Virus record (IMG/VR): IMGVR_UViG_3300045988_100207
Strand: one strand, 5' to 3'
Origin: a virus
Length of the DNA: 64,000 bases
Shown in pieces: positions 7,221 through 42,000 of this stretch (position 1 is the stretch's first letter; each line of letters opens with the position of its first letter). The notes under the pieces are model-generated. The model saw only the letters and a program-made list of their open reading frames with translations. It ran no database searches and was not told the DNA's origin. Both the position numbers and the translations under genes were made by a program.

Positions 7221-7661
7221 CTAGCACTTTTTGTTTCTGTACCAGAGAGTAAACCCAATCGCGCAAGCCGCCAGTATGAACAGAAAGGCGATATAGCATC
7301 TGCCCAGCGACATCAGCCTTTGCTCGTTCTTCGTCAGTTGTCGCTCTATAGGATAAGGCACGGCGACAGAATCCGTCTTGATGATCGTGTCCGTCTTCAC
7401 CTTATATATATTATGATACCGGTCCCGGTAAACCACCTTGTTATGGAAAACCGTATCACCTTTCTGAAAAACATATACCGAATCCTTCATGTAGATACTA
7501 TCCAACTTAGCAAAAGTATCAGTTCTGCATACGTATTCAGTTCTAACAGAAGGAACCTTGATATACTCCTTCGTCTTGCATCCTGTAAATGACAATAGGA
7601 TAATTCCAATCATCAAGCCGATGCAAGCCCATTTCCAAAACCTTATGTCATACCATTTCAT
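7221..7661 (-). CDS. unimolecular spanin-like lipoprotein
   Basis: N-terminal signal with lipobox-like LSFTGC, C-terminal TM helix (IAFLFILAACAIGFTLWY); immediately downstream of the endolysin. Confidence 0.55.
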   Translation of the reverse strand: MKWYDIRFWKWACIGLMIGIILLSFTGCKTKEYIKVPSVRTEYVCRTDTFAKLDSIYMKDSVYVFQKGDTVFHNKVVYRDRYHNIYKVKTDTIIKTDSVAVPYPIERQLTKNEQRLMSLGRCYIAFLFILAACAIGFTLWYRNKKC

Positions 7662-7664
7662 AAG

Positions 7665-8108
7665 CTATATCTCTTTGTATTCAACTTTAGCTTCAAAGCA
7701 AGGGCACTCCTTGATTCTCTCCCAAGGATCCACTACGCCATTATGGTTCTTGTCGGGCGAAATATCCCTGTGCCCTAAGATTTCAGCATACGGATATTTC
7801 TTCTTCAGCTGAGTGAGCAGAGTGATAAGTGATTTCTTCTGTTCCTCAGTTCTGTTGTCTACCGCCTTTCCCTTCTTGTTGATGCCGCCAACGTAAGCCA
7901 CATTGATAGCCGTAGCATTATATCCCTTCACACCGTTGCTAACCATTTCTACCGGAAGCATCTGGTGAATCCCACCATCAGCAGTAATCACGTAATGATA
8001 CCCTGGGTTATTCCAGCCTTTGCGCTTAAACTCGTCCCAAAGTTCCTTCACGCCCCATTTCTGAGAAGAGGCAGTACAATGAACAAAAATTCTCTTGATC
8101 AGTCTCAT
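7665..8108 (-). CDS. N-acetylmuramoyl-L-alanine amidase endolysin (Amidase_2 / T7-lysozyme-like)
   Basis: FVHCTA...GYHYVITADG...NATAINVAYVGG...LGHRDI...CPCF: Zn ligands His/His/Cys in canonical order. Confidence 0.85.
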   Translation of the reverse strand: MRLIKRIFVHCTASSQKWGVKELWDEFKRKGWNNPGYHYVITADGGIHQMLPVEMVSNGVKGYNATAINVAYVGGINKKGKAVDNRTEEQKKSLITLLTQLKKKYPYAEILGHRDISPDKNHNGVVDPWERIKECPCFEAKVEYKEI

Positions 8109-8548
8109 TTCTTCTCCTCCTTTCCCTGCTCCTTCATAATCTCAGCAAAAGCCCTAGCCAAGTCTTCTTTGTTCTCCAGAAGAATGCTTACTGTCTTCTC
8201 CTGCTTCCGTATCTCAGCCTTCTGCCAGCTCTTCTCTCTTACGCTTACAAATTCACAGAACACGCAATAGCCTGCCCATATCATAGAGAAGACAGGGAAG
8301 GGGAGAACCGTACAGGCTATCAGGTCTATGCAGACCGTCACCATGAAGGGAGAGAAGTATTTCCTCGCCTTGTCGCAAGTCTTCTTGAATCCTGTACTTG
8401 TCGTAGCCAGTCCGTTCTCTTTCGCTTTCTTGATGCCGAAGAACAGGTCCACGCCCATAGAAATAATAAGAGCACCCATGCAGATGGCAATAACCAATGC
8501 CGATCTGTACAGGTGCTCTTGTAAAAATGTATGTACTATCTCTGCCAT
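8105..8548 (-). CDS. holin (phi LC3 / holin_4-like)
   Basis: TM helices, DLFFGIKKAKENGLATTSTGFKKT motif, charged C-terminal tail; ATGA overlap with the endolysin. Confidence 0.7.
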   Translation of the reverse strand: MAEIVHTFLQEHLYRSALVIAICMGALIISMGVDLFFGIKKAKENGLATTSTGFKKTCDKARKYFSPFMVTVCIDLIACTVLPFPVFSMIWAGYCVFCEFVSVREKSWQKAEIRKQEKTVSILLENKEDLARAFAEIMKEQGKEEKK

Positions 8549-8616: not shown

Positions 8617-9078
8617 TTAGCTATTCATGTACCACCAGATTTTATCTGTAGGGTGGTTTGTCGATTCGTCACAGAGGAAACTGATAGCCAGTTCCGAAAT
8701 TCTTTTTCTTGTGGTGTCTTTGTTCTTCGACCATTTGCCCACCACGTCTATATGGTCAGCATAAATCTTATTCATCGTTACTGCAAAATCCCAGAAGTTG
8801 TAGTCCGGTATGTTCCAAGATAGCCGGTCATAATCATCCTTCAACTCATCAAACCCGAAGTAAGGCGCATACTTTTTGTGAACATCGTCATCAAAATAAT
8901 AGATGTTGGCGATACAGGCTCTGCCCAGTTGTTCGTCAAAGTGATGCTTCCTTTCCATCCAGTACAGCAGATTCCTCTGCACAATCCTCTCTTCTTCCTC
9001 TGTAAACCCGCACTCATCGTTTCTTAGCATCCCGAAGGCAGATTCTGCTATTCGATAGAGCGATTTTGATAAATCCAT
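8617..9078 (-). CDS. hypothetical protein
   Basis: 153-aa ORF; start uncertain (65-nt overlap with upstream ORF; internal ATGs at 9030 and 8958). Confidence 0.45.
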   Translation of the reverse strand: MDLSKSLYRIAESAFGMLRNDECGFTEEEERIVQRNLLYWMERKHHFDEQLGRACIANIYYFDDDVHKKYAPYFGFDELKDDYDRLSWNIPDYNFWDFAVTMNKIYADHIDVVGKWSKNKDTTRKRISELAISFLCDESTNHPTDKIWWYMNS

Positions 9079-9346
9079 AAGCGTAAAGCATTAAAGTGAA
9101 TATGATAAACACATGGTGCATCTCTAACTGCTCGGGAGTGATGAACCAGTGCTGATAATACAATCTGATTGCGTTGATACCGAAAAAATAGAAGAACGGA
9201 ATACGGAAAATCCAGCAGTATCTGAAGAAGAAACTTACCGGTATCATGGTCAGTGGCATATAAATGTATGCCAGTACATAAATCCAGATGATGCAGTTCC
9301 CGTTGAAATCGGTATCTAATATTGTTGGTCTAGGGATAATGTCCAT
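9014..9346 (-). CDS. small multi-pass membrane protein
   Basis: 110 aa with about 3 hydrophobic helices rich in F/Y/W. Confidence 0.4.
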   Translation of the reverse strand: MDIIPRPTILDTDFNGNCIIWIYVLAYIYMPLTMIPVSFFFRYCWIFRIPFFYFFGINAIRLYYQHWFITPEQLEMHHVFIIFTLMLYAYGFIKIALSNSRICLRDAKKR

Positions 9347-9530
9347 AGTCCCATACGCCGTACCAGTGACCTAGCATCAATGGGATGGGTGCCCACTTTG
9401 ATAGAAGTTCATAGAACCTCCAAATCTTCCTACTCAATAAGCCTTCCATAACTAAGGCTTCCTCCTCTTCCGAGAGAGGCGATTCCTGTTTTGTTCTCAT
9501 TTTTGTTACGAATTTATGGTTTAATTTCAT
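9330..9530 (-). CDS. hypothetical protein
   Basis: 66-aa ORF, first gene after the leftward promoter at 9573-9580. Confidence 0.4.
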   Translation of the reverse strand: MKLNHKFVTKMRTKQESPLSEEEEALVMEGLLSRKIWRFYELLSKWAPIPLMLGHWYGVWDYGHYP

Positions 9531-9572
9531 CTTTTACTAACAAATATTAGAATATATATATTATTTTTGTTA

Positions 9573-9580
9573 CAAAGTTA
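9573..9580 (-). promoter_or_regulatory. candidate -7 box TAACTTTG (leftward)
   Basis: Complement of CAAAGTTA; 42 nt upstream of ATG 9530; no clear -33 TTTG. Confidence 0.4.
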
Positions 9581-9648
9581 AACTTTTTGTTTCGTAACAC
9601 CATGAAAACCAGCCTAATATTAAACTTATTTAAATCTTTATGCGCTTA

Positions 9649-9680
9649 TTTGGTCATATTCTAAATAATATGTATATTTG
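9649..9680 (+). promoter_or_regulatory. Bacteroidota sigma-A type promoter (TTTG-N20-TATATTTG)
   Basis: -33 TTTG at 9649-9652, -7 TATATTTG at 9673-9680, ATG at 9704; ATGCGCT operator half-site at 9640-9646. Confidence 0.6.
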
Positions 9681-9703
9681 CAACATCTTAATGTAGCATT
9701 TAT

Positions 9704-10159
9704 ATGGCAAGAGCAAATTACGAATTGATTGACAGACAGAGGGATGATCTGATGAAGGCGTATCGGGAGATAGCTCCTAATTGCCATTCTCAACAGGAGG
9801 CTTGGGAAAAGGTGGTTCATTCTCCTGCACCCAGATACTATGTTTCTCCCAAAAGAGCTTGGGATATACTCCGTAGAATGGCAGTCGGCGATTTCTCAAA
9901 GGTGGATAGTATGAAACCGATTCGTCAGAAGTTGTACTATACGCTGTTCAATAGGATGAACGAAATGACGCAGCGAAAGGAGTTCGTGGGCAAATCTTTA
10001 TGGTTTATCTGCCAGTTCCTTGTTTCTGAGCCTGCACCCGAGTTCTTTATCCAGCCAAGTAATCTCAAATTCATTTTCGCTTACTATAAGAAGTATGGAA
10101 AAAATTACAGAGAAATGGACCTTCGTAAGAAGAAACTTTCGAACAAAGCTGGTGCTTAG
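9704..10159 (+). CDS. hypothetical protein
   Basis: 151-aa ORF directly downstream of the promoter; no recognised motif. Confidence 0.5.
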   Translation: MARANYELIDRQRDDLMKAYREIAPNCHSQQEAWEKVVHSPAPRYYVSPKRAWDILRRMAVGDFSKVDSMKPIRQKLYYTLFNRMNEMTQRKEFVGKSLWFICQFLVSEPAPEFFIQPSNLKFIFAYYKKYGKNYREMDLRKKKLSNKAGA

Positions 10160-10601
10160 CATCATCTGCCTCGTTCTGTGTACTTGGCACGTCGGTTTCT
10201 ATCCCGGTTGCCCTTGGCAGAATCATATCCTGTATAGCTTCTTCCATGTCAACGGCTTTCATCTTGCCGTAAACCTTCTGGTGCTTTGGCAGATAAAGAA
10301 CGATATGAAACCAGTCACTTCTCTGGCTGTTGCCTCTGTCGCTAGTCTGCTGCCCATGTATGTTAGTCAGCCTACAATGGGGCTTTCCGGTTTCCTATTC
10401 GCTTCATTCGGTTTGATGTGGGGTAGGACAGGACGATGGAAAGAGGCATTAAAGAAAGCGATGCCGTTCATTATTTGCACAATGGCCGTGCCGAATGTCA
10501 ACGGACTTCTGCATCTTTGGTGCTTTTTTTTAGGTTATTGTTGCTCATTCTTATGGATTAAAATTATATATATATGGAAAAGGAAATATGGAAACCAATA
10601 A
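10095..10601 (+). CDS. rhomboid-family intramembrane serine protease (minimal 6-TM core)
   Basis: FHVNGFHLAVNLL (H-x4-H-x3-N as in GlpG TM2), GLSGFLFASFG (GxSG, TM4), NGLLHLWCFFLGY (TM6 His); six hydrophobic segments; start set at ATG 10095 (MEKITEKW). Confidence 0.65.
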   Translation: MEKITEKWTFVRRNFRTKLVLSIICLVLCTWHVGFYPGCPWQNHILYSFFHVNGFHLAVNLLVLWQIKNDMKPVTSLAVASVASLLPMYVSQPTMGLSGFLFASFGLMWGRTGRWKEALKKAMPFIICTMAVPNVNGLLHLWCFFLGYCCSFLWIKIIYIWKRKYGNQ

Positions 10602-11179
10602 AAGGATACGAAGGGCTTTACGATGTAAGCAATTTTGGCAGAGTCAAAATGCTAAAAAGAGTAACAGCTTTTGGTTGTTCCACAAAAATTTATCCAGAAG
10701 TGATAAAGAAGCAGTCTGATGATGGAGTTGGGTACAAGACAGTTACATTATCAAAGAACGGAAAGAGTAAAACGTATCGGGTTCACAGACTTGTAGCTGA
10801 AGCTTTCATTCCAAATCCAGAGAATAAACCACAAGTATCACATCTAGATGAGTCAAAAGATAATAATAAAGTAACTAATTTGCGTTGGGCGACTTGCAAA
10901 GAAAATATAAATATGCCGCTTCATAGAATTAGGGCTTCAATAAGCCACTCTGGAGAAAGATGTTGTAGATTTGGGAAGCGAGGCTATTTAAGCACAAATG
11001 GGAAAATTGTTATTCAATTAGATAAGAATGGTAATTTTATTGCAGAATTTGGCAGCCAACTAGAAGCAGCTAGAAGTGTTGGCTCTAAAGACTCTAGCGG
11101 TATTTCTGCTTGTTGCTTAGGAAAACAAGAAACTGCATACGGATTTAAATGGAAATATAAAGAAGAATCATGTTTTTAA
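10574..11179 (+). CDS. HNH homing endonuclease (NUMOD4 + HNH_3 + C-terminal NUMOD/IENR-like HTH)
   Basis: WKPIKGYEGLYDVSNFGRV; VHRLVAEAFIPNPENKPQVSHLDESKDNNKVTNLRWATCKEN; C-terminal FGSQLEAARSVG...AYGFKWKY. Confidence 0.85.
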   Translation: MEKEIWKPIKGYEGLYDVSNFGRVKMLKRVTAFGCSTKIYPEVIKKQSDDGVGYKTVTLSKNGKSKTYRVHRLVAEAFIPNPENKPQVSHLDESKDNNKVTNLRWATCKENINMPLHRIRASISHSGERCCRFGKRGYLSTNGKIVIQLDKNGNFIAEFGSQLEAARSVGSKDSSGISACCLGKQETAYGFKWKYKEESCF

Positions 11180-11202
11180 AAATGTATTTCATAACTCATT
11201 TT

Positions 11203-11237
11203 AAAGGCGACCACTCGTGATGAGCAGCCGCCTTTTT
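11203..11237. terminator. bidirectional hairpin between convergent genes
   Basis: AAAGGCG (11203-11209) pairs with CGCCTTT (11229-11235), T-run after it; lies between 11179(+) and 11270(-). Confidence 0.5.
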
Positions 11238-11269
11238 CATGTTATCATAAATTAGCGCGTATGAAAGAA

Positions 11270-14047: not shown

Positions 14048-16165
14048 CTAAATTTTCGCCGCCGTATGAACACCATCACCACCACGGCTTCTTCTTTCCG
14101 CTTTCTTCCAGCTAGGCTTCTCCATGTCCGTTAGACTCACAAAGAGACCGATGCCGGTACTCATTACCACATCGTCATGGTTTCCGTTACCAACGATATT
14201 ACCCAAGCTGCCATCATCATGTCGCTCATAGATGCGCAACTCATGATACATTTCCTTGTCTGGCTCCTCATACAGGTTATCATCAATAAACTCTTCCAAG
14301 TTATCAATCACCTGCTGCTTCGTCAGCTTGTTGGTTTGGAAACCATATTTCGCCAGCACGTTATCTTCCACATTCTCCGAACTGCTCGTTCTCTGATACA
14401 GATTATCGTAGTAGTCGGCTATCTCCTGCAGAATAGTCAGGAAGTGATCACCCTCCGTGTTGTTGTTCTTCTCTCGGTCGGCAGTATTACTCTCTATTAC
14501 CAGTAGCGCATCATCATAATAATGGGCTAGGGCAGCAGCCATCCATGCCAGTTTATCATGTCTAACATGTCCTCTGTATCTCGCTACTACCTTTGGCTTG
14601 CCCTTCACGGTAGGAATCATACCGAATCTGTCTATCACGGTCATAACGGTATAGTCCGATGTCGTACTCTTACCGCCAATATCCACGCTCACCAAGTATC
14701 TGTTCTCCACTTGCAGACAGTTTGGCACAGCCCAAATCTTCAAGTCTCCCTCTCCGTCGTCTCTCAGCTTTACCTTCGAGTTCGGAATGGTGTTATCATC
14801 CTTCACGCTGATGTTCACCACGATGTCGGCAGTAAACTTAGGATCTTGCTTATACAAAGCCTGCATGTCGTCTATAGAATAAGGATTGAATACCAGTCTA
14901 CCAGAGTTTCTGAACGCATCTTCCTCATCAATAGGAGCCTCGGTAGCACATGCCGCATGGGTAGTAAACTTGTTTCTATAATTTCTATACCATTCTATCG
15001 CCTCAAAGCAAGCACCCTTCTGCCACATTCGCCAGAAGAACTTTCCGGTCTCACGATATCCCTTCGGGCAGGTACTTCGGTCTCTGTTCTGCAAAAGCCA
15101 CTTGGCAAATGCTCTTCTGTTCTCTACAGGAGTCATATCCTTTTCGATGAAGAAACAAGGAATAAAGAGGAACGAATAAGCATCATTATTCTTTGGGTCC
15201 ATTGCCAACTGGCACTTGTCGTAGAAGAAACCAGAGTTACCTCTACCGGTACTCTCGAATATCTCCACGTTGTCTTCCAACGGGTCGATACCACCGGATA
15301 TAGAAGAAATCACACCCTCAGGATCATGCTCTGGTGTCTTCTTCCAATAGGCTACCTCCGAATAGTGGGCACAGTGGAAGTTGCTACCACGCACAGAATC
15401 GAAGTTCTCGAAGGATGCTACAGTCAGCGTACTTCGTCTGATTGCCTTCACACCATCCGTTACTTGGAAATCGTCAGGAGAATTTTCGTATGGCGAGAAC
15501 TGAAGTTTTGCGCCCGTATGCCCCACGGTCCACCCCGGCTGCCGCTCCAAAGCTTTTCGGTACATCGCCTTAATCTTCTTGGCGGTATTCTTCTGCTGGG
15601 CAAGCACAATAGCATTCCAACCATCGCGCCTGTAGTCTTGAATCCATTTGATGTAAAGCTGTGATAGGGTAGAGCCGCCCCACTGACGTGCTTTCAGAAT
15701 AACCACGAACACTGGTTTGTGGGCATTCCGCAGGTCCTCCATAATCTTCAGTAGTTTTCTTTGAGGATAATTCAGCTTGAAAGGAATCATCTTACCGGTC
15801 TTCTTATCCTCAATTTTATCGGTCACGTATAGGGCAAACTCGGGGTCTTCCATGAACCTCACTCTACAGATGGCAAAGGTAAGCATTTGGAAATGCTGGG
15901 CATCATCCTTCTGGTGCAACACATAGTTGATGTAGTCTTTCAGGCTGCCCATCTTTCTCAGACCTCTAAACAGAACAGATTTGGCGGTCTTCTTCGGAAC
16001 CCACATCTTAGGAATGAAGAAATCGGATAGTTCTATCTTCACACGATGCTCAAAGTTATAGCACCCTTCGCCCGTCATAGGGTCGTAGGGACCATAAATC
16101 TCATCGTATCGCTTATGATTTTCCGCTACGAGATTATCTATTTCCTGTTCAGTTACTAGAGCCAT
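14048..16165 (-). CDS. terL: terminase large subunit
   Basis: Walker A-like ILKARQWGGST, Walker B/coupling HCAHYSEVAYW, RNaseH-like nuclease acidic residues (VSVDIGG..., LLVIESN, NHDDVVMS); 705 aa. Confidence 0.85.
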   Translation of the reverse strand: MALVTEQEIDNLVAENHKRYDEIYGPYDPMTGEGCYNFEHRVKIELSDFFIPKMWVPKKTAKSVLFRGLRKMGSLKDYINYVLHQKDDAQHFQMLTFAICRVRFMEDPEFALYVTDKIEDKKTGKMIPFKLNYPQRKLLKIMEDLRNAHKPVFVVILKARQWGGSTLSQLYIKWIQDYRRDGWNAIVLAQQKNTAKKIKAMYRKALERQPGWTVGHTGAKLQFSPYENSPDDFQVTDGVKAIRRSTLTVASFENFDSVRGSNFHCAHYSEVAYWKKTPEHDPEGVISSISGGIDPLEDNVEIFESTGRGNSGFFYDKCQLAMDPKNNDAYSFLFIPCFFIEKDMTPVENRRAFAKWLLQNRDRSTCPKGYRETGKFFWRMWQKGACFEAIEWYRNYRNKFTTHAACATEAPIDEEDAFRNSGRLVFNPYSIDDMQALYKQDPKFTADIVVNISVKDDNTIPNSKVKLRDDGEGDLKIWAVPNCLQVENRYLVSVDIGGKSTTSDYTVMTVIDRFGMIPTVKGKPKVVARYRGHVRHDKLAWMAAALAHYYDDALLVIESNTADREKNNNTEGDHFLTILQEIADYYDNLYQRTSSSENVEDNVLAKYGFQTNKLTKQQVIDNLEEFIDDNLYEEPDKEMYHELRIYERHDDGSLGNIVGNGNHDDVVMSTGIGLFVSLTDMEKPSWKKAERRSRGGDGVHTAAKI

Positions 16166-18527: not shown

Positions 18528-20561
18528 TTATGCTACTCTGTTATATCCTAATGCACTCTGTGCCTGTGCTACTGCATTCTGGTCTGCACCCTGCACAATT
18601 CCGTTCTCTACCTGACCACCGCCTTGCTGCATAGCCATTGCCTGTTGCTGCTGATACATCTGTTCAAGCTGAGCCTGCTGCTCCTGTACGCTGGCAAGCA
18701 ACTTGTCTGCAAATGGTGCGTTGAGATTCTGCAGATACTGAATGATATTGATACCGCCCATTTCAAGAAGCTTGTCGAGCGTATCGTTTTGCATCGTGTT
18801 GAAGGCTGCCGTAGCTGCTGCATTCTTGATACTGATCTTGAAGTGAATATCTCTTGCCGAAAAACGGTCGTACTTGTAAACCGTATTGAAGTTCCGGTCG
18901 TAAACCCTTCTTCCGTCTTCGTAGTACTGCTGTATAGTCATGCACTTCTTGGTTGCCAGCTTCTCCGTGAACACGTCCATGTCGGCAAGGATGGTATACA
19001 GAGACGTGGTTGCATTCTGGCTTTCCTGTGCATATCTGGCTGCCGAAGTTCCTGCCGATGGGGTCTTACCCTGCAAAGCACCGCTCACGTTGGTAACCTC
19101 TCGAATCAGGTTCAGTTCTATCTGCAAGAGTTCATTGGTACCAATATTCACGGCATTCGATGTAATAATTTCTGGCTTCACATTCGGTGTCTTCACCGAT
19201 GGCTTGTAGAATATCCATCCGTCATACTCTACCGCCTCTTCCATAAACTGCTCTGGCGTTCTGCCGTTAAGCACATTCGTAGGAATCATCTTGAATCCCT
19301 TGAAACTGCTTCTGATGGCCATGTCGTTCATTACAATCAGTCGGTTGATGTATCGCTGCTGGTCTATGATGTTGGCAAGGAATGGATGAATCTCTCCGTT
19401 GATATACGGATAGAGTTTCATCGTGAAAGGATGGCTCTTATAATCGTATGGTGTTTCGCCCTGGCAGAGGATAGTTCCGTCTGGCGCCATGTAGGTATAA
19501 TACCAGTACTTATCTGCAATCTCTTCGCTAGTGATGTACGCTCTGTCTTCTTCCGCTATACCCATTTCGTCATACTGCTGCTTGCGCTTCATATTGTCGT
19601 TGCGCAGCTTCTGTATCATCGCAGTATCATCCAAATCTATGCGGAAGTAAGCACCGGTTCCTGTGGTCGCAATCGGGTCAAAGCATTGCAGTCTTGGCTT
19701 GGTTTCCGTGGTCCACACCTCAATCACTCTAGAGTAATGTCTTCCCTTGTTGCTATGGTCAAAACTGAGATTCTCCAACGCCTTCTCTTCGTTAAACTCA
19801 TAGCCGTAGCTGTTATCGTCCGAAGGATAAATATCAAAGATGGCGTTCAGATCTTCTTCTGTAAGCCCATATTCCTGTTTGGAAAACTTCTGATACAAGT
19901 CTTCTCGGCTCACGTCATGCAGCACACCGATAAGGCTCACGTCGTTGTGTCGTGGGTCGCTACCGCATTCAAAAAACATGTGGTCGGGTTCCATCGCGTC
20001 TGTCCATGAGTCGGGCATTTCAAGTTCCTTCGCCTCCCAACTCTCCCTGACAAACATCTGACCGCCCATCAGGTAGTCTTTAATGGCGTGGTTTAGCACA
20101 TCTTGCATGTACGTTGTCTGCCAGTTGCATTGCATCGTGGCACTCATCATGTCGCTCAGTTGTCGGGAGTCGCTGTCTCTTGCAAAGCAGACAGGTTCCG
20201 TTCCCTGCTTGGCATAAAGACCGGCAATAGATTCCAGAATGCTCACCATGATGTTGTTGCTCATAGGTGTCTGGTTGCGCTTCTCCATATAGGTACGCTC
20301 CGTCATTTCCTCCCAGTAGCCATGATGGTATACTCTGATGGTGTCGCTCCATTGGTCGCCCATACAGTAGCGCATCGTTCTCGCCCTCGTTTCTCGCACA
20401 CCGCTCAGGTTATTCCAAGCATTTCTGCATCGGCTGAGTAACTCCTCGTCCTTGCCGTGTTCTTGTCTTCGCTTGCGAGCCTTAACCGAGTCATACTTGT
20501 TATGTTGAGGCATCACTTTGCTAAGTGTCAGTATTCTTGCCTTTACCATTTTCTTATACAT
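18528..20561 (-). CDS. portal protein (putative)
   Basis: 677 aa, first gene of the late operon that contains terL; Q-rich C-terminal tail; assignment by size and position, no search possible. Confidence 0.55.
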   Translation of the reverse strand: MYKKMVKARILTLSKVMPQHNKYDSVKARKRRQEHGKDEELLSRCRNAWNNLSGVRETRARTMRYCMGDQWSDTIRVYHHGYWEEMTERTYMEKRNQTPMSNNIMVSILESIAGLYAKQGTEPVCFARDSDSRQLSDMMSATMQCNWQTTYMQDVLNHAIKDYLMGGQMFVRESWEAKELEMPDSWTDAMEPDHMFFECGSDPRHNDVSLIGVLHDVSREDLYQKFSKQEYGLTEEDLNAIFDIYPSDDNSYGYEFNEEKALENLSFDHSNKGRHYSRVIEVWTTETKPRLQCFDPIATTGTGAYFRIDLDDTAMIQKLRNDNMKRKQQYDEMGIAEEDRAYITSEEIADKYWYYTYMAPDGTILCQGETPYDYKSHPFTMKLYPYINGEIHPFLANIIDQQRYINRLIVMNDMAIRSSFKGFKMIPTNVLNGRTPEQFMEEAVEYDGWIFYKPSVKTPNVKPEIITSNAVNIGTNELLQIELNLIREVTNVSGALQGKTPSAGTSAARYAQESQNATTSLYTILADMDVFTEKLATKKCMTIQQYYEDGRRVYDRNFNTVYKYDRFSARDIHFKISIKNAAATAAFNTMQNDTLDKLLEMGGINIIQYLQNLNAPFADKLLASVQEQQAQLEQMYQQQQAMAMQQGGGQVENGIVQGADQNAVAQAQSALGYNRVA

Positions 20562-21507: not shown

Positions 21508-23217
21508 ATGTATAAAATGAAGAAAAATTGTTTTAAGAATTTTATGAGTGGTCAGTTCGTCTTTAAGATGATTCTGATGCTTCTTGCCGTAGTTACCGGT
21601 GGTGGCGTAATGGCAACGGCAGACCTTGTAGAGCCGCAGATTGGCAACGAGGGAGTAAATCCTGCAGACAAAGAGACTGTTGCCCAAAAAGAGCCAGTAG
21701 ACCCTAATGTTAACGACAGACTTAGCCCTGGTGGAAAAAAAGATGGTCAAGACCTTACAGGCTCCCAGGCTTCTAGTACACAGCTTCGTGAGGGTGGTCT
21801 GCTTGATAAGGAGTGGGATAGTGAGATAGTTAAGTTCTATCCTTTCAAGACACCGCTTCTTTCTATTGTTCGCCGTATGGCAAAAACAGTAAATATTAAG
21901 AACTGGTCAATCTCGCATCAGCGTGTTGGTGGCGAAACTCTTGATGGACAGACTATTCAGAGAATTGAAACTGCTGACACCATCGAGATTAATTCAACGA
22001 ACTTCTCTGGTTCTATTCGCCCATTCTATAAAGGCACTACTGTTTTTGCTTCTGGTGTTCCCGGTTATGCTGCTGGCTCACAGACCAAGACAGAGGGTAC
22101 ACTGATGCTTTATGTAATTGAGGCTAACGGTAAAAAAGCGGTTATGCAGGCTGTCAACGGAAAGCCGAAGGTTAGTGGAGACTCAAGAGACAATCTTGAC
22201 AACATGACTTGCCCGGAAATCCCTGTTGGAACAACGTTCCTTGCTGGTGCATCTGCAGCTTCTGAGTCTCAGCTCACCATTACACCAGAAAACTTCCAGC
22301 CACGCGAGAAAGAAGTGTATGTTCAGAAGAAACTCTTGAACATCGTATTTACAGATGACTACGAGAAGGTAAAGAAGGAGCAGCCTATTACAGTTGCCGA
22401 CTTAAAGACCGATGCTATCATCAAGTATAACCTACGTGCAGAGCGTACTTATTTGCTTGGATGCAAGTCTCGCTTCAAGGCAGAGACCGGCGACGGACAG
22501 ATTGAAGATGTCTATACCTCTGAGGGTATCATCAATCAGCTCACCAACACATACTCCATCGGTGATACTTATACGCTTGGCGATTTGATTGCTATTTCCA
22601 AACTCCAGTTCACGGAATTCTCCGAGAATGATCGTTGTTTTGCCTTCTGTGGTAAGAATGCTATCGAACGTTTGGAGAATATCAAGTTGGAGGGAAGCCA
22701 TCAGAACGACTTCATTAATCACAACGAGTTCGACCTTACCTTCAAGCGATTCAAAGACACCTTCGGCTCTATTGATTTTGTTTGGACTCAGACTCTCGAT
22801 CTCTTGGGTATGTCAGACTTTATGGTTATCTTCGACCCTAAGGCTTCTCGCCGATACGTCAAGATTGGCAAGAAGGAGCAGACCAATGATATGTCTAAGG
22901 GAGGTGGCGAGGTTCGTGACGCTAAGCGTTGGATTCATCAGGAGGCAGATAGTGTGGCACTTCGTGGTTACAACTCAATCTTGGTTGGTCCTGCTGATAA
23001 GATTGCTAAGATTGCCACAGAGTCACTTAATGCCATCATTTCTGCTAAGGAACTTCCTAAGAATCCATCAAAGGGTATGAAGGTTGCGCTCACGCAAAAC
23101 TACACCTTAAAGGGTACTAATTCTCCTACTGATGATGTCAAGTATGAGGCAGGTACAGTTTTATACTACACTGGCACCGCTTGGGCTATCTATGCTGGTC
23201 AAGATACAGCGCAGTAA
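21508..23217 (+). CDS. major capsid protein (putative)
   Basis: 569 aa following the scaffold-like gene and followed by a strong hairpin terminator; assignment positional. Confidence 0.55.
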   Translation: MYKMKKNCFKNFMSGQFVFKMILMLLAVVTGGGVMATADLVEPQIGNEGVNPADKETVAQKEPVDPNVNDRLSPGGKKDGQDLTGSQASSTQLREGGLLDKEWDSEIVKFYPFKTPLLSIVRRMAKTVNIKNWSISHQRVGGETLDGQTIQRIETADTIEINSTNFSGSIRPFYKGTTVFASGVPGYAAGSQTKTEGTLMLYVIEANGKKAVMQAVNGKPKVSGDSRDNLDNMTCPEIPVGTTFLAGASAASESQLTITPENFQPREKEVYVQKKLLNIVFTDDYEKVKKEQPITVADLKTDAIIKYNLRAERTYLLGCKSRFKAETGDGQIEDVYTSEGIINQLTNTYSIGDTYTLGDLIAISKLQFTEFSENDRCFAFCGKNAIERLENIKLEGSHQNDFINHNEFDLTFKRFKDTFGSIDFVWTQTLDLLGMSDFMVIFDPKASRRYVKIGKKEQTNDMSKGGGEVRDAKRWIHQEADSVALRGYNSILVGPADKIAKIATESLNAIISAKELPKNPSKGMKVALTQNYTLKGTNSPTDDVKYEAGTVLYYTGTAWAIYAGQDTAQ

Positions 23218-33011: not shown

Positions 33012-36000
33012 TTATTCCAATCTATCCAGTTCATCCACCGCATCCATCATGATTCTGTCAATATTCTGATTAGCGAAGTTGATGCTCTCGGTATCAGAAG
33101 ACTTATCTCTGAGTTTCTTCCAGCGCTTCATCTGTTTCTCTGCCAACTCGATGATTCTAACCTTGGCAGCCTCCTTGGAGTTTTGGAAGTGGAAATACTC
33201 ACCTATATTCGTGATTCTCTTATCAATCGGAACGTTCTTCGATTTCAGGCGGTCCACGTTGGCCATGGTCTTTTCCATTTCGTCCTTGTAGTTATACCAC
33301 TTGCTCTTGGTTCGCTGCAAGCTGCTCTGCTCATTTGGCGTATAGAGTAGTGAGCGAAGGAAAGGAATATCCTTGGTTTCCGTGTCGCTTCCGTGCTTAA
33401 TAACACCGATAGCACGCTCAGTAAAGGTAGCCGCACCACCACCTATGCCACCGATGTAGTGATTCAGCATACTAGGGTTTGTTACCATATCCAGGAAACT
33501 ATTACCCAGCATATCTTCATTACCCTTGGCTACATCGTTAGTCTGAGCATTCACCCATTTATTCACAGCCATATATCCGTCAGGCACACCCCTGTAGGCT
33601 CTCTGCCAAGCAGGGGAATTTTCATTCCAGTCACCACGTCTTTCAATCGGCGCACCCTTCCAGTCGGTATTTAGCTCCCATTCCACGAAAGGAGATAGGG
33701 CAGAAGGAGAGATAGCTTTGATCGTCTCATTCAATGGCTCCTTGCCAGCCGAAGAGTTACCGAGATAGTCCATCACCGGCACAAGCTGCGACATACAGCC
33801 CACGGCATCCAAGGCAGGATTCTTCTGTCCGCTTACGTTTGGCGAGAAGGTCAAGCCAGCCGCCAAGTCACCCAAACCATAGAAGGCTCTCAACTCGATG
33901 GCAAGCGGAATAGTAATAAACTGTCCGCCACCTTTATATATACAGAGATTGTTTCTTCTCACGTAGTCAGGCAACTCGCCGTATGGGTCCTTCACACCCT
34001 TTCTGTCCTTCTCGTCCTCACTCGCAATCAGCACATTGTTACCTAGTGCAGCCAACGCACCGAGAGCAAAAGGAATGGCAAGCATATTGATAGAAGTACC
34101 CACAGGATGATTCTTCAAGTTCTTCACAAGAAGATTTGTACTCTGAATACCGGCATTGAAGAACATAGAACAATGTCTCAGATAGCTAGCCGTAAATCCG
34201 TAAGTCCATCTTGCAGCCGCCTTGCCGCCAGTCATTTCTCCGTTCTTGAAACTCTTGATGGCATCACCGCTACCATGGCGGTTGAAGTTGGTAGATACCT
34301 CCTTCGCATCATAGACCGAACGGATGATAGAGCGGTTACTGTCTCGGCTCGCACAATAGGTAGCAAATCGGGCGATATTCTCAGCCACCTCGTTGATGTT
34401 CGCCAGATTTCCGAAGAAGAAGTCACGAAGGACAGCACCGCCCTTGTCAATCTTGCTTCTTTCGCCCTTCACATCTTTTTTGTATTCCTTGGTCCAATCC
34501 TGCATGTTCTTGATCTGAACCCAACCGGTTTCGCCGCCGTTCTCCATGAACTCCTTGAAATATCGCTGAACCTTGTCGCTCATATCAAGTGTTCCGTTAC
34601 GATACTTGGCAAATAAGCCCAAGCCAGTAGTTCCGCTCAAATCCTTGAAGCTGATATTCGATGCACCCTTATACAAGCCCAACTGCGCATAGTACTTCGC
34701 CCATAGCGCACCATATCTTGCACCCTCCTTGGAAGTAACGTTGCTCGATGCAAACTCCGCATCACGCATGATGTTTCGCATCACGAACTCAGGGTTATAA
34801 GATGTACACAACTGCGCCATCATTCTTGAAATAGAACTCAATGGTTTCATGATTCCCTTGGCACCCGAGTTCTCCAGCAATCCATTCAGAGCCTGCGCCG
34901 CTCTAGGATTTCCGTTGATAATAAAGGTATGGGTCCTTCCGGCAATCTTCACATCTACGATATGCTGCGATTTATTCTCCGCTCTTTGGAACTTATAACC
35001 AATCTTGTCTCTGCGATAAACCTTGTATGCCATACCCTGTGATTCCTTCATCTTCATATCCTTATTGAAGTCTGAAACAATCTGGTTGATTTCGTCGGCC
35101 GTAGCATCCTCAGGAATATCAGGGTAGCGCTCATAGACGATGTTCACCACTGGGTCCTTCTCATACCAGACGCTTGTTTCGGTAATCAGATTATTGCCCG
35201 AATTGTTTCTCGCGAATCTTGCAAATGCCTGACGGATAGCATTCATACCACCGTTCTTGATGGCTCTGTTACCCATCGCACCAATCTGCGCCAGTACGTT
35301 AGTTTCACTCAGATACTTGTGTCCTCTCGCTCTCATAATCGTGCTTCCGATGTAACTCTTCGGGTCACCCTGCTCAGTAATGTATCCATAAGTATCTTCT
35401 GCCGTAGCCTCATCATACTTTCTCAAAGGCACATACCAGTTGAACATATTCGATACATGACCATGCAATTCCTTGCTGATGATGCCATTCTTGTAGTCGC
35501 TGTCAATAGAATACTGGGTAGCAGCCTTCACCTTATCCCAATAGTCCTTTACAGCTCCCTTCTTGATGCTCTCCATCTTCGCTTCCGAATCCATCACGCT
35601 CTGAATAGCCTCGGCATCATTGTAAGGGTCAGAAGATTTCGTCACCTCCTGTATAGCGTGCATACCAGAATAGTCATGCTCGCCAGCCTCGAAGTCTGCA
35701 TCAAAGTGATTTCTGATACTCTCGTCCAACTGTCTGTAGTACTCCTTCAGGTCGATGTTGCCAGCCTTCAACTCGTTGTCAAGATACTCCTTATCGCTAT
35801 AATAACTGTTTTCCAAGAAGTCGGCATCCTGCTTTTTCTGCTCGTCCATCCTCATATTTCTAAGGAAATCACGCACAAAGAACTCTCTGTTTCGCTCCAA
35901 ACCATGCTTGGTAATCATGTAGAGATTGAAGTTGCGAATCTTCTCATCATCCTTCTTTCCGTCGAAAGCATCCAGCACATCGGCCATGGCCTTGTCAAGA

Positions 36001-39000
36001 GGCTTCATCACGTTGCGCTCAAACATCTGAGCCGCATCACTCATCGCGCCCTGCATGGTGTTCTGCAGTATATAAGGATTCTCCGAAGAGGCAATATCCT
36101 CAATCTTCTTGTCTGGCACAATCGCATTCATCAACTTCTTCAACGAAAGCATATTGTCCATATAGCTCTCTGTGAACATATAGCCGTGCTCGTCAAGTGA
36201 ACGGTGGTATCTGTCAAGTGCCGTGCCGGCAGATGGGGTAGTACGGAAGTGAATCTCACCATCTGTAGCCTCATTCCACTCAGCCTTGGTAAGATTATCC
36301 ATACTTCTAACCTTTCCGTCATTTCCGTAGAACATGCCATCATGCGCCACGACAGCAGGCATACGCTCATGGTCGAGACGGTATTTCACCGCCTCGGCTC
36401 TCATCTTCCAATAAGGATCATCCGGATTCTTCTGCAAGTTCTTGCTCAACCAGAGCAAGTACTTCACATCTTTAGTATTAGGAGCAACACGATAACCGAT
36501 TTCGTGAAGGAAATCAGATACCTTGTTTTTGATACCATTCCAGAAGCCCGGTTCACCCTTGCCATCCTCGGCGAGTCGGGCGATACCTTCCTCAATGGCA
36601 TCATAGATATTCAGAGGATTGAACTTTCTCTCCTCATCCACCAGCTTCTTCAAAGCCGCATTCTCAGGCTTATCCAAGTCGTACCATACTTCACGAAGGA
36701 ACTTGTCGAATCGTTCATCACCAAACAACTCGCTCATTCCCTTGTGTCCAACCACCTCATGCCAGATGGTCTTCTCGGCAGTATATCTATCGTGGATATT
36801 AGGCATGTAAAGATGCACCTCGCCAGTCTTCTCGTCATACCAGCCAGTAATCTTTCTACCTTCCTCAATAGCAGCCTTAGCCGCCTTGTTGGTGATTTCA
36901 TCAACCGATGAAACCATGTTCACCTTTGCACCAGTCTTCTGAACCACCTTTTCGATATGGCTCTCAACAGATGAAGTGGGGTAGTTGCCATCGCCGTGGT
37001 CCGTGCGGAACTTGATGCCGCCATCCTTGCCCCATACATTGAAGGCATCCTTTGTCATTTTCACGTTGACGAACTTAGCCTGAGGGAACTCCTGTTCCAG
37101 TTCAGCCATCTGCTTCAAGAACTTCTCCTTTGTTTCAGGGTTCTGTCTGCCTTGCTCTACGGTAGTGATAGGCACACCAAGTTTTACAAGCTCTCTCAAC
37201 TGGTTAGGGGTAACTACGTTCCAAGGGATAGCCAATCCTGTTCCTCTCAGTTGGTCGGCGATTTTCTCAGCAACCTCCTCGTCAGGCAATATTCTTACTG
37301 CCTTTCTCCATCTAGAGAGCATCACGCTTCTCTGTCTGTCCTTTGGCAGGAGGCTGTTTACTGTTCCAGAAGTCCAAGGCACCAAGCCCACAGAGTTCTT
37401 CGCGCCCTCGGCGTGATAGCCGCTAGTCTTCTCGCTCTCAGGAATCTCCCATTCCACAACCTTGATATTGCCTCTAGCGTAAGCGCCAGAGAACTGATCG
37501 TTCATCACCGAAGTGGAAGTGTGCATATAAGGGTTATAAGCCGCTGGTACTGGTCCTTCTCCTGCCCCAGGGTTCTTGTCGGTCTTTACAAGTTGGAACT
37601 TACCGTTCTTCACAAGGTCAGGTCGCTCGTCTGCGCCCATCCAAGCACCAATCTCTGTAGCATCAGTACGCTTTCCGTCAATGATAGCAGCCATAGGGGA
37701 GTAGAGCTTACCGTCCACCTCCTGCATTCCGCTATACATTCTGAAAGTCTTCTCCTTGTTGAGGCGGTCCAGTTCATCCTTGTCGGTAACTCTGTAGGCA
37801 TAGCCGTTTTCCTCAATGTCATTCATGGCAATATCATCAATCTTTTCATTGAAATCATCCATGATGTCATTGAGAGCCTTATCCATCTTGCTTTTATCCG
37901 AAATCTCAAAGAGTTTATGCCAAGCGTTCTTTACAGCTTGCCACAAGGAGTTATCGCCTCGGTTGCGCAATTCGTTAACTGCGTTCATGATTCGCTCACC
38001 TAAAGAAAGGCCAAGTATCTTTCTCTGCTTTCCACCTGCCATTTCAGCAGCAAATTCATACTCATCCTTACCACCATAGTTACGTCTCTTTCCTTCCTCC
38101 CAAACAATTCTACCATCAGCCTTAACCTTATTGTAAATATCAATAACAGTCTTTACAGCTTCAATCTGCTTAGGAGTAAGCATACCTTCTGCCTTTCCGT
38201 CCTTTACAAGGTGGATGGCACCCATAGTAGCCTGATGAATTAACTCATGCAGAATGGTATGAGCCGCCTCTTTAGGGTTTGTGTATGTTCTAGAAAGAGT
38301 ATCAATAAAGAGATTAATGTTTCTTTCTGGTGTAGCTTCACCAACATTGCCTCTCTCGTCACCCTCGTCCATGCCACCAAACTCAACTCCGAGTCGCTTG
38401 GCTATATCGCGCGCCTTCTCAAAGAGTCTTCTTGTGCCTTCTTCTTTTGCTTGATTTGTCGCCTCAAAGAGTCTAGATATATCTGCAAAAGAGGCTTTAG
38501 CTCCTCTTCGCAATCCATAGCCATCTGCGAGAGCTTTGGCTCGAACTTCTCGATAGTCCATTTCTCTCCTTGCGGCAGTTTTGGCAGCTTCAAGTTCAGC
38601 TCTTTTAAGTTGCACAAGATGCGTTCTACCTGCTTTCTCTCGGTTTCCAAAAGTTCGTCCCCAGAATCTAACTTCATCTTCTAGTCCATTTAAAGTGTAA
38701 GTAATTTCAGAAGCCTTGTATCTAGAAAATTCTGAGGTATAATAGTCAAGATGTCTGTTAAACTCGGCTTTATCCTCATTCGACAAGTCCTTAGTCAACT
38801 CGTCAACTCTATCATCAAACTTCTTTTCAATCTGCGAAGATACATTTTTATCTACATCTTCCGGAATGATTCTACTATTCTTAACATCTTTTGTATCTGT
38901 TTTAGAATACTGGAAGCCTCGGTCCTCACGGAAGTGGGTGCCTTCATCCTCAGAAGTATTGCGCTCCTCCTGTACCTTCACGCCCATTTTAGACAGACGG

Positions 39001-42000
39001 TCAAGTACTGGCTTCAACTGCTCTGGCTTGAACTCAGCAAGCATATTGTTGCCTCTGGTCTCGAAGTTATTGCCATTAACCAGTTTCAGTAAATCTTCAT
39101 CCATGAAGTACTTGCCGCCCTTCGCCTTGCTCTTCGGTACACGAAGTTCATAGTAGTAGCCACGATTGTTGTCTATGCGTTTCACCTTTACTTCACCATC
39201 CGATGAAGTAACCTCGTCAATACCACCGTGCCAAGATGAAAGTTCAAACTTCTCAGCTACGCTGTTGATAGGCGCATCCGTAGTCAAGCCCTTAGGGTCG
39301 AATCGGTCCGGCATCAAGATACCAGTCTTCACCTCGCCAGTATCAGTAGTATATTTTACCAGCTGACCGCCCAATCCCTGATCCTTGCTGTCAACCAAAG
39401 CCTGCATCAGGTTACCGGTCACGATATAGCCATTCTTGCGGCTCTCATTGCTAGTCAGTCTATCCCAGTTATCAAAGTTTTGGTTCAATACTCTGAGATG
39501 GCTGTCTCCCATACTGATTGCCTGCTTAGTCATGTTGTCGATGGCACTGATAACATCTATATTGCCTTCACCTGCGCCTACCTTACCCACGATAGGGAAT
39601 GTAATCTTTCTTCTGCCATCCAAGGTAGCGAAGGAAACAGAAGAGGCGTTAGGCGAGTAGTTATCAGTAATCTTGATGTCAATAAGTCTACCGTAACTGT
39701 TACCGAATCCGCTCAACTCATTAGGGTTATTCATATCCGTAGGCAGAGCGAAAGTTTGGTTTGTATCGAAGGTATCAAGCACACGCTCAAACATTTCAGC
39801 CTTGGCTTTCAGGTTCTTCATCACATCGTTCAGCTTATCTTTCTCCTGCTTGTAGATGTTGTCATACTGATAGCCAGCCATCTTCTCAATCTGCTCATCG
39901 CTCATGCCCGAATCCTTCTGACCCTTCTTAGCATCCTTGATATACTTCTCCTTAGCCTTGGTTGCAGCCTTCACGGCACGCTCCTCATACTTCTGAGTCT
40001 CGTCCGCAATCTTCTGGTCGAAGTATTCCTTCACGGCAGCCTTCTTCTCGGTCTTGTATTCATCCCAAGTCTTACCGCCAGTCAAACCATCCTGCGAAGC
40101 CTTCACCTCAGAAGCCTTCATAGGTTTCTTCAAGATGGCCATGTTCACCTTTTCTATATAGGTATTGTCTGCAAAGGCGTTATCGCCGCCCGGCTCTGCA
40201 CCCTGCTTCCAAACTTCCTTGTGGAGAGTCTTAGCCTTCAGAGGCAGCTCGGTAATCTCCAAGTCATTCTCGCCCATTTCGTTGAGTCGCTGAATCTCGT
40301 TGGCATAAAGCTCGCCAATCTCCTGCAACATCTTCTCCTGCTCAGAAACTCTCAGCAGAGCCATACGCCCAAGTAACTTGCTTGCATCGGCACCAGCTTC
40401 GCCATCGCCAACACCGCCACCGCTTGCAACAAGCGTCTGTGGGTCGATTCTAGACAAATCATCACCATGACTCTTTTCCCATCCGAATGGGTCTGCCATG
40501 CGAGCATAAAGGTCAAGATGCTCTGCCATATACTCACGAACTACCTTATCACCATATTTATTGGTAATATCGGCAACTTCCATTTCGTTGAACTTACTCT
40601 TCTGTGAAGATGTAGTATTAGCATCAAGAGATTTCAACTTAGCCTTAAACATCATCAGCAGTCGCTGCTCGGCAGGGATAAGGGAAACCACATACTCGTA
40701 TGCACCTCTAGCCACCTGACCGGTTCGGTCGATACGCCCACGCATCTGAACCTCATCGTTTACGTCGAGCTGCTGCTGCGCCACGATCATCACACGCTTT
40801 TTCTGGTCCTTATACTTGCTCGAAGCATGAAGGGAAATACCGGTTGCTGCACTCTTATTGAGAATAAGCGCATCAATCTTGCCATCGTTAAAGTCGCGCG
40901 CGAGTTTCTTCTTGTCTGTATCAGCACGCTTCACCTTGGTAACAGTTCCGTTGTCGTTATAAACAAACTCGGTCTGTCTACCGGTCAGCTCGCCAACCTT
41001 ATAGCCAGCCTTCTGCAGTTCGTTCTTGATAACATCAATAGGGGAGAGTGAAAGACCGGTACTTGTCTGCTCAATCTTCTTTTCCAGTTCGTGATAAGCC
41101 TCAACTGCCTCATCGCCCAAATCCGAAAGCTTGATGTAGCCGCTTTCACTATTATCCTTTGCGTCCTTCTGAGTATAGCGAAGTGTACCCTCCAGACCCT
41201 TCTTCAAAGATGTGCCCAAGTCTGGTGCGTCCATTTCCTCACCAAGCGCAAGGTTGCCAGTCTGCGATTCGTTGGTATTGTTCAACGCAATCACAGGCTT
41301 CATACCCTGCTTCAAATAGTCGATTGCACGTTCTGCAGCAGACTTCGCTTTCAGGGAGAGAAGAACCTGCTGAACGGTATTGAATGCCTTGCTGGCAAAT
41401 GGCTGATTCTTGATACCCAGGGCAGCCGTTCCCTTCTTGATTCCCATAGTAGACTGAATGGCAGCCAGCTCGTCATTACGCTCATCCACGTAACTTGAAA
41501 CATATTTCTTTTGGAAATTGATAATATCATTAAACAATCCGATGATACTATCATACTGCTCTCGCTGTTCCTGCACTCGCTCAGGATCATCAATCGCCTT
41601 CCAGTCGATGGTTACGCCTGTCATATCTCGCTCACGGCGAATCATCTGACCGCATTGCGTCAAGGTCTGGCTCATAATCTCCTGCAAGGTGGCACCACCA
41701 CGCTTCACCGCATCAATCAAGTCGGATGATTTCATACCGCCCTCGTTCATGGCAGTACGCAAAGCGTAGATAGGCATGTTGTCTGGTCTCTTGGCAAAGG
41801 TTGCAGAGAAGAAGGTAACGTTCTTTGCCTTCTGAATAATGTGTTGGAAATAGTTGCCCTGACCGCTATTACCACCAGCCGTGTGGCTTTCGTCAAGGAT
41901 AAGATAGGCGTTGTCCATCAGTTTTTCAATAGCATCACGTCTTCTTTGTCCGCTAAGGGCAGCAGCACCGAATGTCTTACCCTTCGCAAGTTTCTTCTCT

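Follow-up and report, generated by a model that had tools for sequence, protein, structure and literature searches.

Genes and features at the locus

We describe a small gene at 10095..10601 of the virus record IMGVR_UViG_3300045988_100207 (IMG/VR), a stretch of 64,000 nt that is called the window throughout. An initial annotation had read its product as a minimal, phage-encoded, rhomboid-like intramembrane serine protease. Comparison of the protein with its relatives supports its being a genuine rhomboid homologue, and the joint claim that it is a rhomboid and that its gene is a conserved part of the phage morphogenesis module appears likely to us. The following features, all on the plus strand, make up the locus, with residues numbered on the protein and TM standing for transmembrane:

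9649..9680, +: Bacteroidetes-type promoter-like motif TTTG-N20-TAtaTTTG, 24 nt before the ATG at 9704
9704..10159, +: upstream partner open reading frame (upORF), 151 aa, phrog_27246, all-helical, in the position usual for a small terminase
10095..10601, +: rhomboid-like gene, 168 aa, six TM helices and an N-terminal amphipathic helix, predicted N-in/C-in
10245..10274, +: TM2 motif H51-x-N53-x2-H56-x3-N60, corresponding to the oxyanion-hole residues H145/H150/N154 of GlpG
10380..10391, +: G96-L-S98-G99 with the nucleophile Ser (codon 10386-10388) at the start of TM4 (helix 98-112)
10500..10535, +: TM6 motif N136-G137-L-L-H140-x2-[C/A/S/T]143-x3-G147, with the catalytic His (codon 10512-10514) and a small-xxx-Gly packing motif
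10526..11154, +: inserted HNH cassette, 629 bp, replacing about 57 bp of ancestral sequence, with an HNH/NUMOD4 open reading frame at 10574..11179

The open reading frame (ORF) runs as first annotated from an ATG at 10095 to a stop codon at 10599-10601 and encodes 168 aa. Its 5′-end overlaps upORF by the 65 nt given in the initial annotation, and its 3′-end is overlapped for 28 nt by the ORF at 10574..11179, which was called an HNH homing endonuclease gene and does match the domains HNH_3 and NUMOD4. A shorter start at GTG 10152 is unlikely, as the basic N-terminus is conserved (K18 in at least 90% of sequences, Met1 nearly invariant) and the overlapping tail of upORF is variable. The three motifs named at the outset, H51-x4-H56-x3-N60, G96-L-S98-G99 and N136-G-L-L-H140...G147, are in the right places, and around the first of them the protein reads F50-H51-V-N53-G-F-H56-L-A-V-N60. 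Six membrane segments had been proposed, and an AlphaFold model has six TM helices (residues 15-28, 41-66, which is kinked, 73-83, 98-112, 115-131 and 137-165) preceded by the amphipathic helix at residues 2-13. On the translation, 16-17 Lys and Arg residues fall on the predicted cytoplasmic side and none in the three periplasmic loops, a distribution that indicates the canonical N-in/C-in topology with the active site toward the periplasm. Against close relatives, the ratio of nonsynonymous to synonymous substitution rates of the gene is 0.07-0.31.

The partner gene upORF is homologous to gp9 of the Bacteroides phage BS-TP4 (E 1e-15) and contains an internal duplication, xPAPRYYVSPxxA and xPAPEFFIxP (PAPRYYVSP and PAPEFFIQP in the protein itself), in which each copy forms a helix-strand-helix unit. 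It has no Pfam match and belongs to a PHROG of unknown function only, and its model (pLDDT, the predicted local distance difference test, 90.8) gave no fold match in the PDB. Among the PADLOC profiles no family was matched at E<=1 by either the rhomboid or upORF. The promoter-like motif, whose consensus we take to be the Bacteroides promoter pattern, occurs four times in the window against 2.0 expected matches, which is weak evidence; it might drive upORF, the rhomboid and the HNH gene.

The HNH cassette has rewritten the end of the rhomboid gene. Relatives that lack the cassette are 95-98% identical, and their rhomboid has 160 aa and the C-terminus ...GYIVAYCINNIKIR. Homology to them extends to 10525 and picks up again at 11155, and these boundaries imply that rhomboid residues ~144-168, including the conserved G147, are encoded by the cassette. 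The last ~17 codons have been swapped for 25 new ones that resemble the lost end of TM6, with a hydrophobic helix followed by a basic tail. The 168-aa form is common to only three IMG/VR genomes, at 99-100% identity. An identical tail, with an HNH cassette at the same 3′ site, is present in a 74%-identical relative (P0003), which fits a conserved target and suggests HNH homing into the conserved DNA that encodes the region of the catalytic His. A terminator-like hairpin with a T8 run lies inside the rhomboid gene at 10511..10531 (+) and spans the left insertion boundary at 10525/10526.

Family-level evidence for a rhomboid protease

Taken alone, the window protein matches the Pfam rhomboid profile PF01694 with E 9.5e-4 and a score of 19.8 bits, which falls short of the gathering score (22.6), and a single-sequence PDB search with it found no relative. 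Its family gives a firmer answer. We retrieved 82 homologues of about 160 aa (E down to 3e-95), and 43 out of 49 aligned relatives match PF01694 at E<=0.01, the best with E 1.5e-8; precomputed PF01694 matches are also present on many relatives. A PDB search with the profile of the 49-sequence alignment returned GlpG chains only (E 0.006), and in the hhalign register H51/H56/N60 fall on GlpG H145/H150/N154 and G96/S98 on G199/S201. Both the hidden Markov model (HMM) and the hhalign alignments to GlpG stop short of TM6. For that helix the phage motif was compared with N251-G-A-H254-x2-G257-x3-G261, which we take to be the GlpG sequence.

Conservation in the family is concentrated on the putative catalytic residues. 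The invariant columns of the 49-sequence alignment include H51, N53, H56, N60, G96, S98, H140 and G147. When distant cluster representatives were added, giving 81 sequences down to 22% identity, only H51, H56, G96, S98 and H140 remained invariant, with N53, N60, G106 and G147 conserved in at least 90%; position 143, three residues after H140, is always C, A, S or T, and G147 lies seven residues after it. The AlphaFold2 model built from the alignment has a pLDDT of 92.3 and a predicted template modelling score of 0.86. In a Foldseek search of the PDB with it, the top 31 matches were all GlpG of E. coli or H. influenzae (E 2e-4 to 9e-3, TM-scores 0.54-0.59), followed by iRhom1, and the next match, which was not a rhomboid, came at E=2. 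The fold alignment to GlpG spans the full length and gives indirect support for the predicted proximity of Ser98 and His140.

The two checks proposed with the initial annotation, an HMM search with the Pfam rhomboid family and a structural model, thus speak for the minimal rhomboid-type serine protease reading at the level of the family, through the profile matches of 43 of the 49 relatives, the GlpG-only profile search and the GlpG-like fold, even though the window protein alone scores below the gathering threshold. We regard the protein as a genuine rhomboid homologue because the family evidence settles what the single-sequence profile score leaves short, and we predict that it is very probably an active protease. 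Two more specific assignments were rejected. The rhombosortase profile (TIGR03902) gave 11.4 bits against a cut-off of 84, and no GlyGly-CTERM partner was seen; a Derlin- or iRhom-type pseudoprotease does not agree with the invariance of Ser98 and His140 in the family.

Several properties of the protein weigh against the reading as an active rhomboid, in addition to the sub-threshold profile score. Loop L1 has only ~12 residues (roughly 29-40), compared with ~33 in GlpG, so that most of it is absent. The WR motif is missing as well, GlpG W136-R137 being aligned to the variable Q42-N43, and the catalytic His140 is preceded by Leu instead of Ala or Gly. In this genome, furthermore, the C-terminal ~25 residues are the cassette-encoded ones. 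The WR motif is found in about 80% of the rhomboid superfamily and is non-catalytic, and A/G-H is the usual pairing at the catalytic His in rhomboids (PMC12615303).

An old and lineage-wide phage gene

Relatives turned up on at least 179 viral contigs in a pattern scan of IMG/VR, with genomes typically of ~75 kb, whereas the same kind of scan over 185,579 species-representative genomes found three loci, all on 21-43 kb contigs of metagenome-assembled genomes (Segatella copri, Ca. Segatella violae and a 'Bacilli' bin). Recent capture from a host, which the initial annotation had put up for testing, is not supported by these numbers; the gene belongs to an old, lineage-wide phage family. An HMM search of 1.84 billion cluster representatives returned 796 clusters at E<=1e-3, and the best 150 of the 796 are mostly 140-200 aa long, which argues for a distinct clade of mini-rhomboids and not for spill-over from cellular rhomboids.

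Carriers are rare among sequenced phages. Out of 50,697 GenBank phage records, only three isolates carry the gene, namely the Bacteroides phages BS-TP4, BKO1-TP3 and BF1-TP2, and a megablast of positions 8000-14000 against GenBank phages found no near-identical cultured phage. The initial annotation was not aware of rhomboids as typical phage cargo, which needs to be qualified: phage rhomboids are rare, but they have been annotated before. GenBank labels BF1-TP2 gp59 and BS-TP4 gp8 as rhomboid; a protein 94% identical to ours carries the JGI name rhomboid-family serine protease; and BFVD holds GlpG-like proteins from uncultured podoviruses, a siphovirus and giant viruses, along with a phage 'rhombosortase'. 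For the Stenotrophomonas phages DLP5 and DLP3, a 'rhomboid membrane protein' has been reported among the morons (PMC5834331; PMC7326821). The paper that describes BF1-TP2, BS-TP4 and BKO1-TP3 makes no mention of the rhomboid gene, and our literature search found no functional study of any phage rhomboid.

The lineage consists of podovirus-like Bacteroidales phages of roughly 64-85 kb with an SU10/DUF5309-type capsid protein, a P22-type portal and a giant polyvalent protein of 5-6 thousand aa. We saw no member of it that lacks the rhomboid. Two loci that had been considered as a rhomboid-less relative (L093/L094) were dropped from that role, as a local tblastn places the rhomboid directly upstream of the large terminase gene (TerL), on the other strand. 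Of 930 viromes, 31% contained BS-TP4 (PMC12694917). As a side observation, the complete genome of BS-TP4 (L103/L104) is that of a temperate phage, with an integrase, a repressor and a RelE/XRE pair, and its diversity-generating retroelement reverse transcriptase adjoins a target protein of 2,645 aa.

A fixed place in the morphogenesis and packaging block

Two further genes of the window place the rhomboid in its context:

14048..16165, -: large terminase homologue, inverted here and directly 3′ of the rhomboid in related clades
18528..20561, -: P22-type portal, part of the morphogenesis-module context

In members whose rhomboids are 27-32% identical to the window protein, the genes for the SU10-type major capsid protein (MCP) and a scaffold-like protein of 262 aa point leftward, upORF, the rhomboid and TerL follow them pointing rightward, and the P22-type portal and the giant polyvalent protein come further along. 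Partial forms of the trio upORF-rhomboid-TerL occur in other clades. The upORF precedes the rhomboid in 92 of the 92 rhomboid loci, with an overlap of 29-110 nt. In the clade of the window, TerL together with an adjoining gene of 921 aa (phrog_32516, a PHROG of unknown function) is inverted and lies downstream of the upORF-rhomboid pair, and in a third clade (L093/L094) the rhomboid is directly upstream of TerL with a 4-nt overlap and upORF is separated from it. The rhomboid gene is a constant member of the block for morphogenesis and packaging, the ancestral order being upORF, rhomboid, TerL, and its product is most probably synthesised alongside those of the late genes. A frameshift fusion of upORF and rhomboid was considered for the 29-110 nt overlap and rejected, since the two frames are offset by +1 in loci of the window clade but by -1 in those of the Bacteroides-phage clade.

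A capsid protein leader as candidate substrate

A scan of all the predicted TM-bearing proteins of the window turned up a leader on the capsid protein:

21508..23217, +: MCP homologue, 569 aa, in which residues 1-38 (21508..21621) form a signal-peptide- or TM-like leader, MYKMKKNCFKNFMSGQFVFKMILMLLAVVTGGGVMATA, followed by an acidic linker

The ORF is homologous to the BS-TP4 MCP (E 4e-18), and its profile matches the solved phage capsid protein 9in6 (E 6e-14). The leader begins with a basic n-region, continues with a hydrophobic helix and a Gly/Ser-rich stretch (GGG or GASSG) and ends in a conserved M-A-x-A; an acidic, low-complexity, Gly/Thr-rich linker comes next and then the HK97-fold body. 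The leader is present in every lineage member examined, among them 70 of the 70 MCP-homologue loci retrieved from IMG/VR; the loci that carry it include L097, L098, L100, L102, L103 and L107-L176. At its residues L23, L26, A27, G31, G32, M35 and A38 no substitution occurs between clades that have only ~25% identity in their MCPs, a degree of conservation that, judged from the sequences, would be unusual for a mere export signal. In 17 of the 17 loci of the distant type the rhomboid lies ~1.3 kb from the MCP gene, and the MCP and the rhomboid are the only TM-bearing proteins of the window with homologues in BS-TP4.

The MCP profile of the lineage detects two outgroups, one a phage of Vibrio (VS-ABTNL-3, E 4e-13) and the other a phage of Microcystis (Mel-JY34, E 1e-10); their MCPs are leaderless, are ~77 residues shorter at the N-terminus and start with MATIAGLRG..., and no rhomboid was found in either phage. 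SU10, too, is without leader and without rhomboid; like Podoviridae sp. ctuNt529 and Vibrio phage douglas, it was a comparator too distant for the MCP profile.

The end of the leader has a conserved hydrophobic residue (Met or Leu) at -4 and a small one (Ala) at -1 of the M-A-x-A. Rhomboids prefer a hydrophobic residue at P4 and a small one at P1, and the residues at -4 and -1 fit this preference. The specificity of signal peptidase I concerns -3 and -1 and leaves the -4 residue unexplained. Gln at +1 is usual in substrates of the Bacteroidetes signal peptidase I, and the capsid leader lacks it. The conserved -4 residue and the absence of Gln at +1 favour a non-canonical fate of the leader, as minor points.

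Going by these observations, the MCP leader is the best candidate for a phage-encoded substrate. By analogy with the family, the rhomboid would be embedded in the inner membrane of the host, with its N- and C-termini on the cytoplasmic side and its Ser98-His140 dyad accessible from the periplasm. The oxyanion hole would be formed, as in GlpG, by His56 and Asn60, and a membrane-embedded segment of another protein would be cleaved near the outer leaflet. We propose that this target may be the N-terminal leader of the phage's own MCP, and that cleavage would strip off the membrane-targeting leader, whereby the capsid protein would be released or the leader disposed of. That the capsid leader is the substrate is possible rather than probable in our judgement, and we are more doubtful of the wider view that the MCP is made as a membrane-targeted precursor and that the rhomboid of the phage is dedicated to removing its leader or releasing it.

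We see a number of arguments against the capsid leader as substrate. The charge distribution of the leader predicts an N-in/C-out orientation similar to that of a Sec signal peptide, which would place the capsid body in the periplasm, where it makes no sense for a tailed phage; this orientation is also the reverse of the usual N-out orientation of rhomboid substrates, which is a problem for the proposal. The A-x-A could be a site for the host signal peptidase I, in which case the host enzyme would suffice. The shared phyletic pattern of leader and rhomboid amounts to a single evolutionary event seen against two outgroups and is therefore weak. Finally, DLP5 has a rhomboid and a leaderless MCP, and so lends the leader idea no independent support.

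Lysis cassette and other features of the window

The lysis genes of the window lie next to the upORF-rhomboid pair in divergent orientation:

7221..8548, -: lysis cassette, divergent from the rhomboid pair; not supported as a source of substrates
7221..7661, -: u-spanin-like lipoprotein, 146 aa, with the lipoprotein signal LSFTGC and a C-terminal TM helix followed by basic residues, directly after the endolysin
7665..8108, -: Amidase_2 endolysin, lysis cassette
8105..8548, -: holin family gene, lysis cassette

The architecture of the protein at 7221..7661 is that of a unimolecular spanin, and it has relatives in the crAss-like phage cr116_1. When the endolysin at 7665..8108 is compared with ten related loci (L002-L009, L095 and L096), it proves to have been exchanged between Amidase_2, GH19 and GH108 types, with the flanking holin and spanin-like genes staying in place. 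At 9014..9530 (-) two overlapping ORFs in different frames (66 aa and 110 aa) correspond to one gene for a 159-aa multi-pass membrane protein in L002. The split is also present in L016, L020 and L064, and represents either a conserved, possibly programmed, frameshift or a true two-gene arrangement. Elsewhere in the window, 33012..50819 (-) is a single ORF of 5,935 aa; its homologues in related phages carry ddrB-ParB, InPase, helicase and LPD38 domains, from which we take it to be a giant polyvalent protein.

Alternative roles of the rhomboid

The rhomboid could instead be active on a host inner-membrane protein, for instance one that resembles TatA, one held by a C-terminal anchor, or a membrane-bound sensor for defence or stress, and could in this way serve envelope remodelling, blunting of defence or superinfection exclusion. 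As far as is known, the characterised substrates of bacterial rhomboids are all cellular membrane proteins (AarA/TatA, YqgP/MgtE, and GlpG and Rhom7 with orphan subunits), the conservation of the enzyme across phages of Bacteroides and of Segatella/Prevotella would fit a conserved Bacteroidales target, and besides the MCP leader no phage membrane protein is conserved together with the rhomboid. We nevertheless think a host substrate rather unlikely, as there is no pointer to any particular host protein and no PADLOC match, the gene sits in the packaging and morphogenesis block and not among early or host-takeover genes, and the conserved MCP leader would be left unexplained. Improbable, in our view, is the processing of a phage lysis protein (holin, antiholin or spanin) to set the timing of lysis. 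In the window clade the pair adjoins the lysis cassette, and the u-spanin-like protein has a type-I-like C-terminal anchor of the kind that rhomboids favour; the adjacency, however, is not kept in the Bacteroides-phage clade, where the neighbours are the scaffold, MCP and TerL genes. The holin family (phrog_20732) occurs in LoVEphage, BI-TP1, BS-TP2 and others that have no rhomboid match and is absent from the three rhomboid-bearing isolates, the u-spanin-like family does not co-occur with the rhomboid either, and the endolysin type changes (Amidase_2, GH19, GH108) while the rhomboid stays. The holin and the spanin were accordingly rejected as substrates for lack of co-occurrence with the rhomboid. 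Small proteins encoded downstream of TerL in relatives, including the BS-TP4 'YajC', were rejected too, being soluble and basic and having no TM helix.

As proposed for the DLP5 rhomboid, the gene might be a lysogenic-conversion moron that benefits the host cell. The listing of the DLP5 and DLP3 rhomboid among moron genes (PMC5834331; PMC7326821) and the temperate nature of BS-TP4, with its integrase and repressor, would agree with this. We consider it quite improbable for the gene studied here, which overlaps the preceding gene by 29-110 nt, abuts TerL and keeps its synteny down to 27% identity, an arrangement unlike that of mobile accessory genes, which bring a promoter and a terminator of their own. 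Very improbable, lastly, is that the protein is a non-proteolytic rhomboid fold, acting as a Derlin-like membrane thinner or a chaperone, or that it has been inactivated in this genome by the C-terminus rewritten by the HNH cassette. Such a view could appeal to the missing L1/WR region, which is important in many rhomboids (PMC12615303), and to the replacement of the C-terminal ~25 residues. The invariant positions of the family are, on the other hand, the catalytic Ser, His and oxyanion sites, a pattern expected of an enzyme and not of a pseudoprotease; the tail supplied by the cassette retains G147 and, like the lost one, is a hydrophobic helix with basic residues at its end, and TM6 is continuous in the model; and the same 168-aa form recurs at 99-100% identity in the three IMG/VR genomes.

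Significance and comparison with known systems

Recognition of the rhomboid fold in phages is not new, as BF1-TP2, BS-TP4 and DLP5 already carry such annotations. What sets the window protein apart is that it lacks L1 and the WR motif, that its gene has a fixed place in a phage morphogenesis module, and that it comes with a testable hypothesis for its substrate. Few bacterial substrates of rhomboids are known, even though rhomboids rank with the most widespread enzymes of membranes. Viruses go unmentioned in a 2025 review of the superfamily (PMC12615303). With ~145 core residues and without the L1/WR element that is usually thought important, the phage protein offers a natural minimal scaffold for structure-function work, and its setting is that of a fixed gene in a phage lineage prevalent in the human gut. 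As the phage itself encodes just one conserved candidate substrate, the hypothesis can be tested directly. To our knowledge, no intramembrane protease takes part in tailed-phage morphogenesis; should the link to the capsid leader hold, the rhomboid would be the first in the morphogenesis of a tailed-phage head, the leader would be the first defined substrate of a viral rhomboid, and the view of how head assembly is organised in these phages would change. Should the link be wrong, a signal-peptide-like leader on the capsid protein of a tailed phage still calls for an explanation.

With GlpG (MEROPS S54, Pfam PF01694) the phage protein shares the six-helix fold, the H-x4-H-x3-N of TM2, the GxSG at the start of TM4, the TM6 His with its small-xxx-Gly and the predicted N-in/C-in topology. 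It differs in being phage-encoded, in having no cytoplasmic N-domain and only ~20% sequence identity, and in one extra residue between the N-G and the catalytic His. Much closer are BF1-TP2 gp59, BS-TP4 gp8 and the BKO1-TP3 protein, which belong to the same family (28-31% identity), with the same upORF partner and the same MCP, scaffold and TerL neighbourhood; there TerL directly follows the rhomboid, whereas the window clade has the TerL block inverted and the window has acquired the HNH cassette. The 'rhomboid membrane protein' of DLP5 and DLP3 is also a small phage-encoded member of the rhomboid superfamily, of 175 aa (PMC5834331; PMC7326821). These phages are siphoviruses in which the gene stands among lipopolysaccharide-modification and moron genes, far from the head genes, and DLP5 combines its leaderless MCP with an XkdF-type protease of its own. 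A tblastn search did not detect the DLP5/DLP3 rhomboid as a relative.

For the proposed cleavage of the capsid leader, a cellular parallel is provided by Providencia stuartii AarA, a bacterial rhomboid that activates the small membrane protein TatA by cutting off a short extension at its N-terminus. TatA is N-out, whereas the capsid leader is predicted to be N-in, and AarA is a cellular enzyme with seven TM helices. Rhombosortase offers another likeness, in that a small rhomboid is paired with a dedicated class of substrates that bear a sorting signal. Among phages, the filamentous (Ff) phages make their major coat protein as a procoat with a membrane-targeting leader that leader peptidase later removes, and the T4 prohead is assembled on the inner membrane and matured by gp21, the head being tethered to the membrane and then freed by proteolysis. 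Both systems differ from the one proposed here in using other protein families and host or soluble proteases, and the Ff virion is extruded through the membrane.

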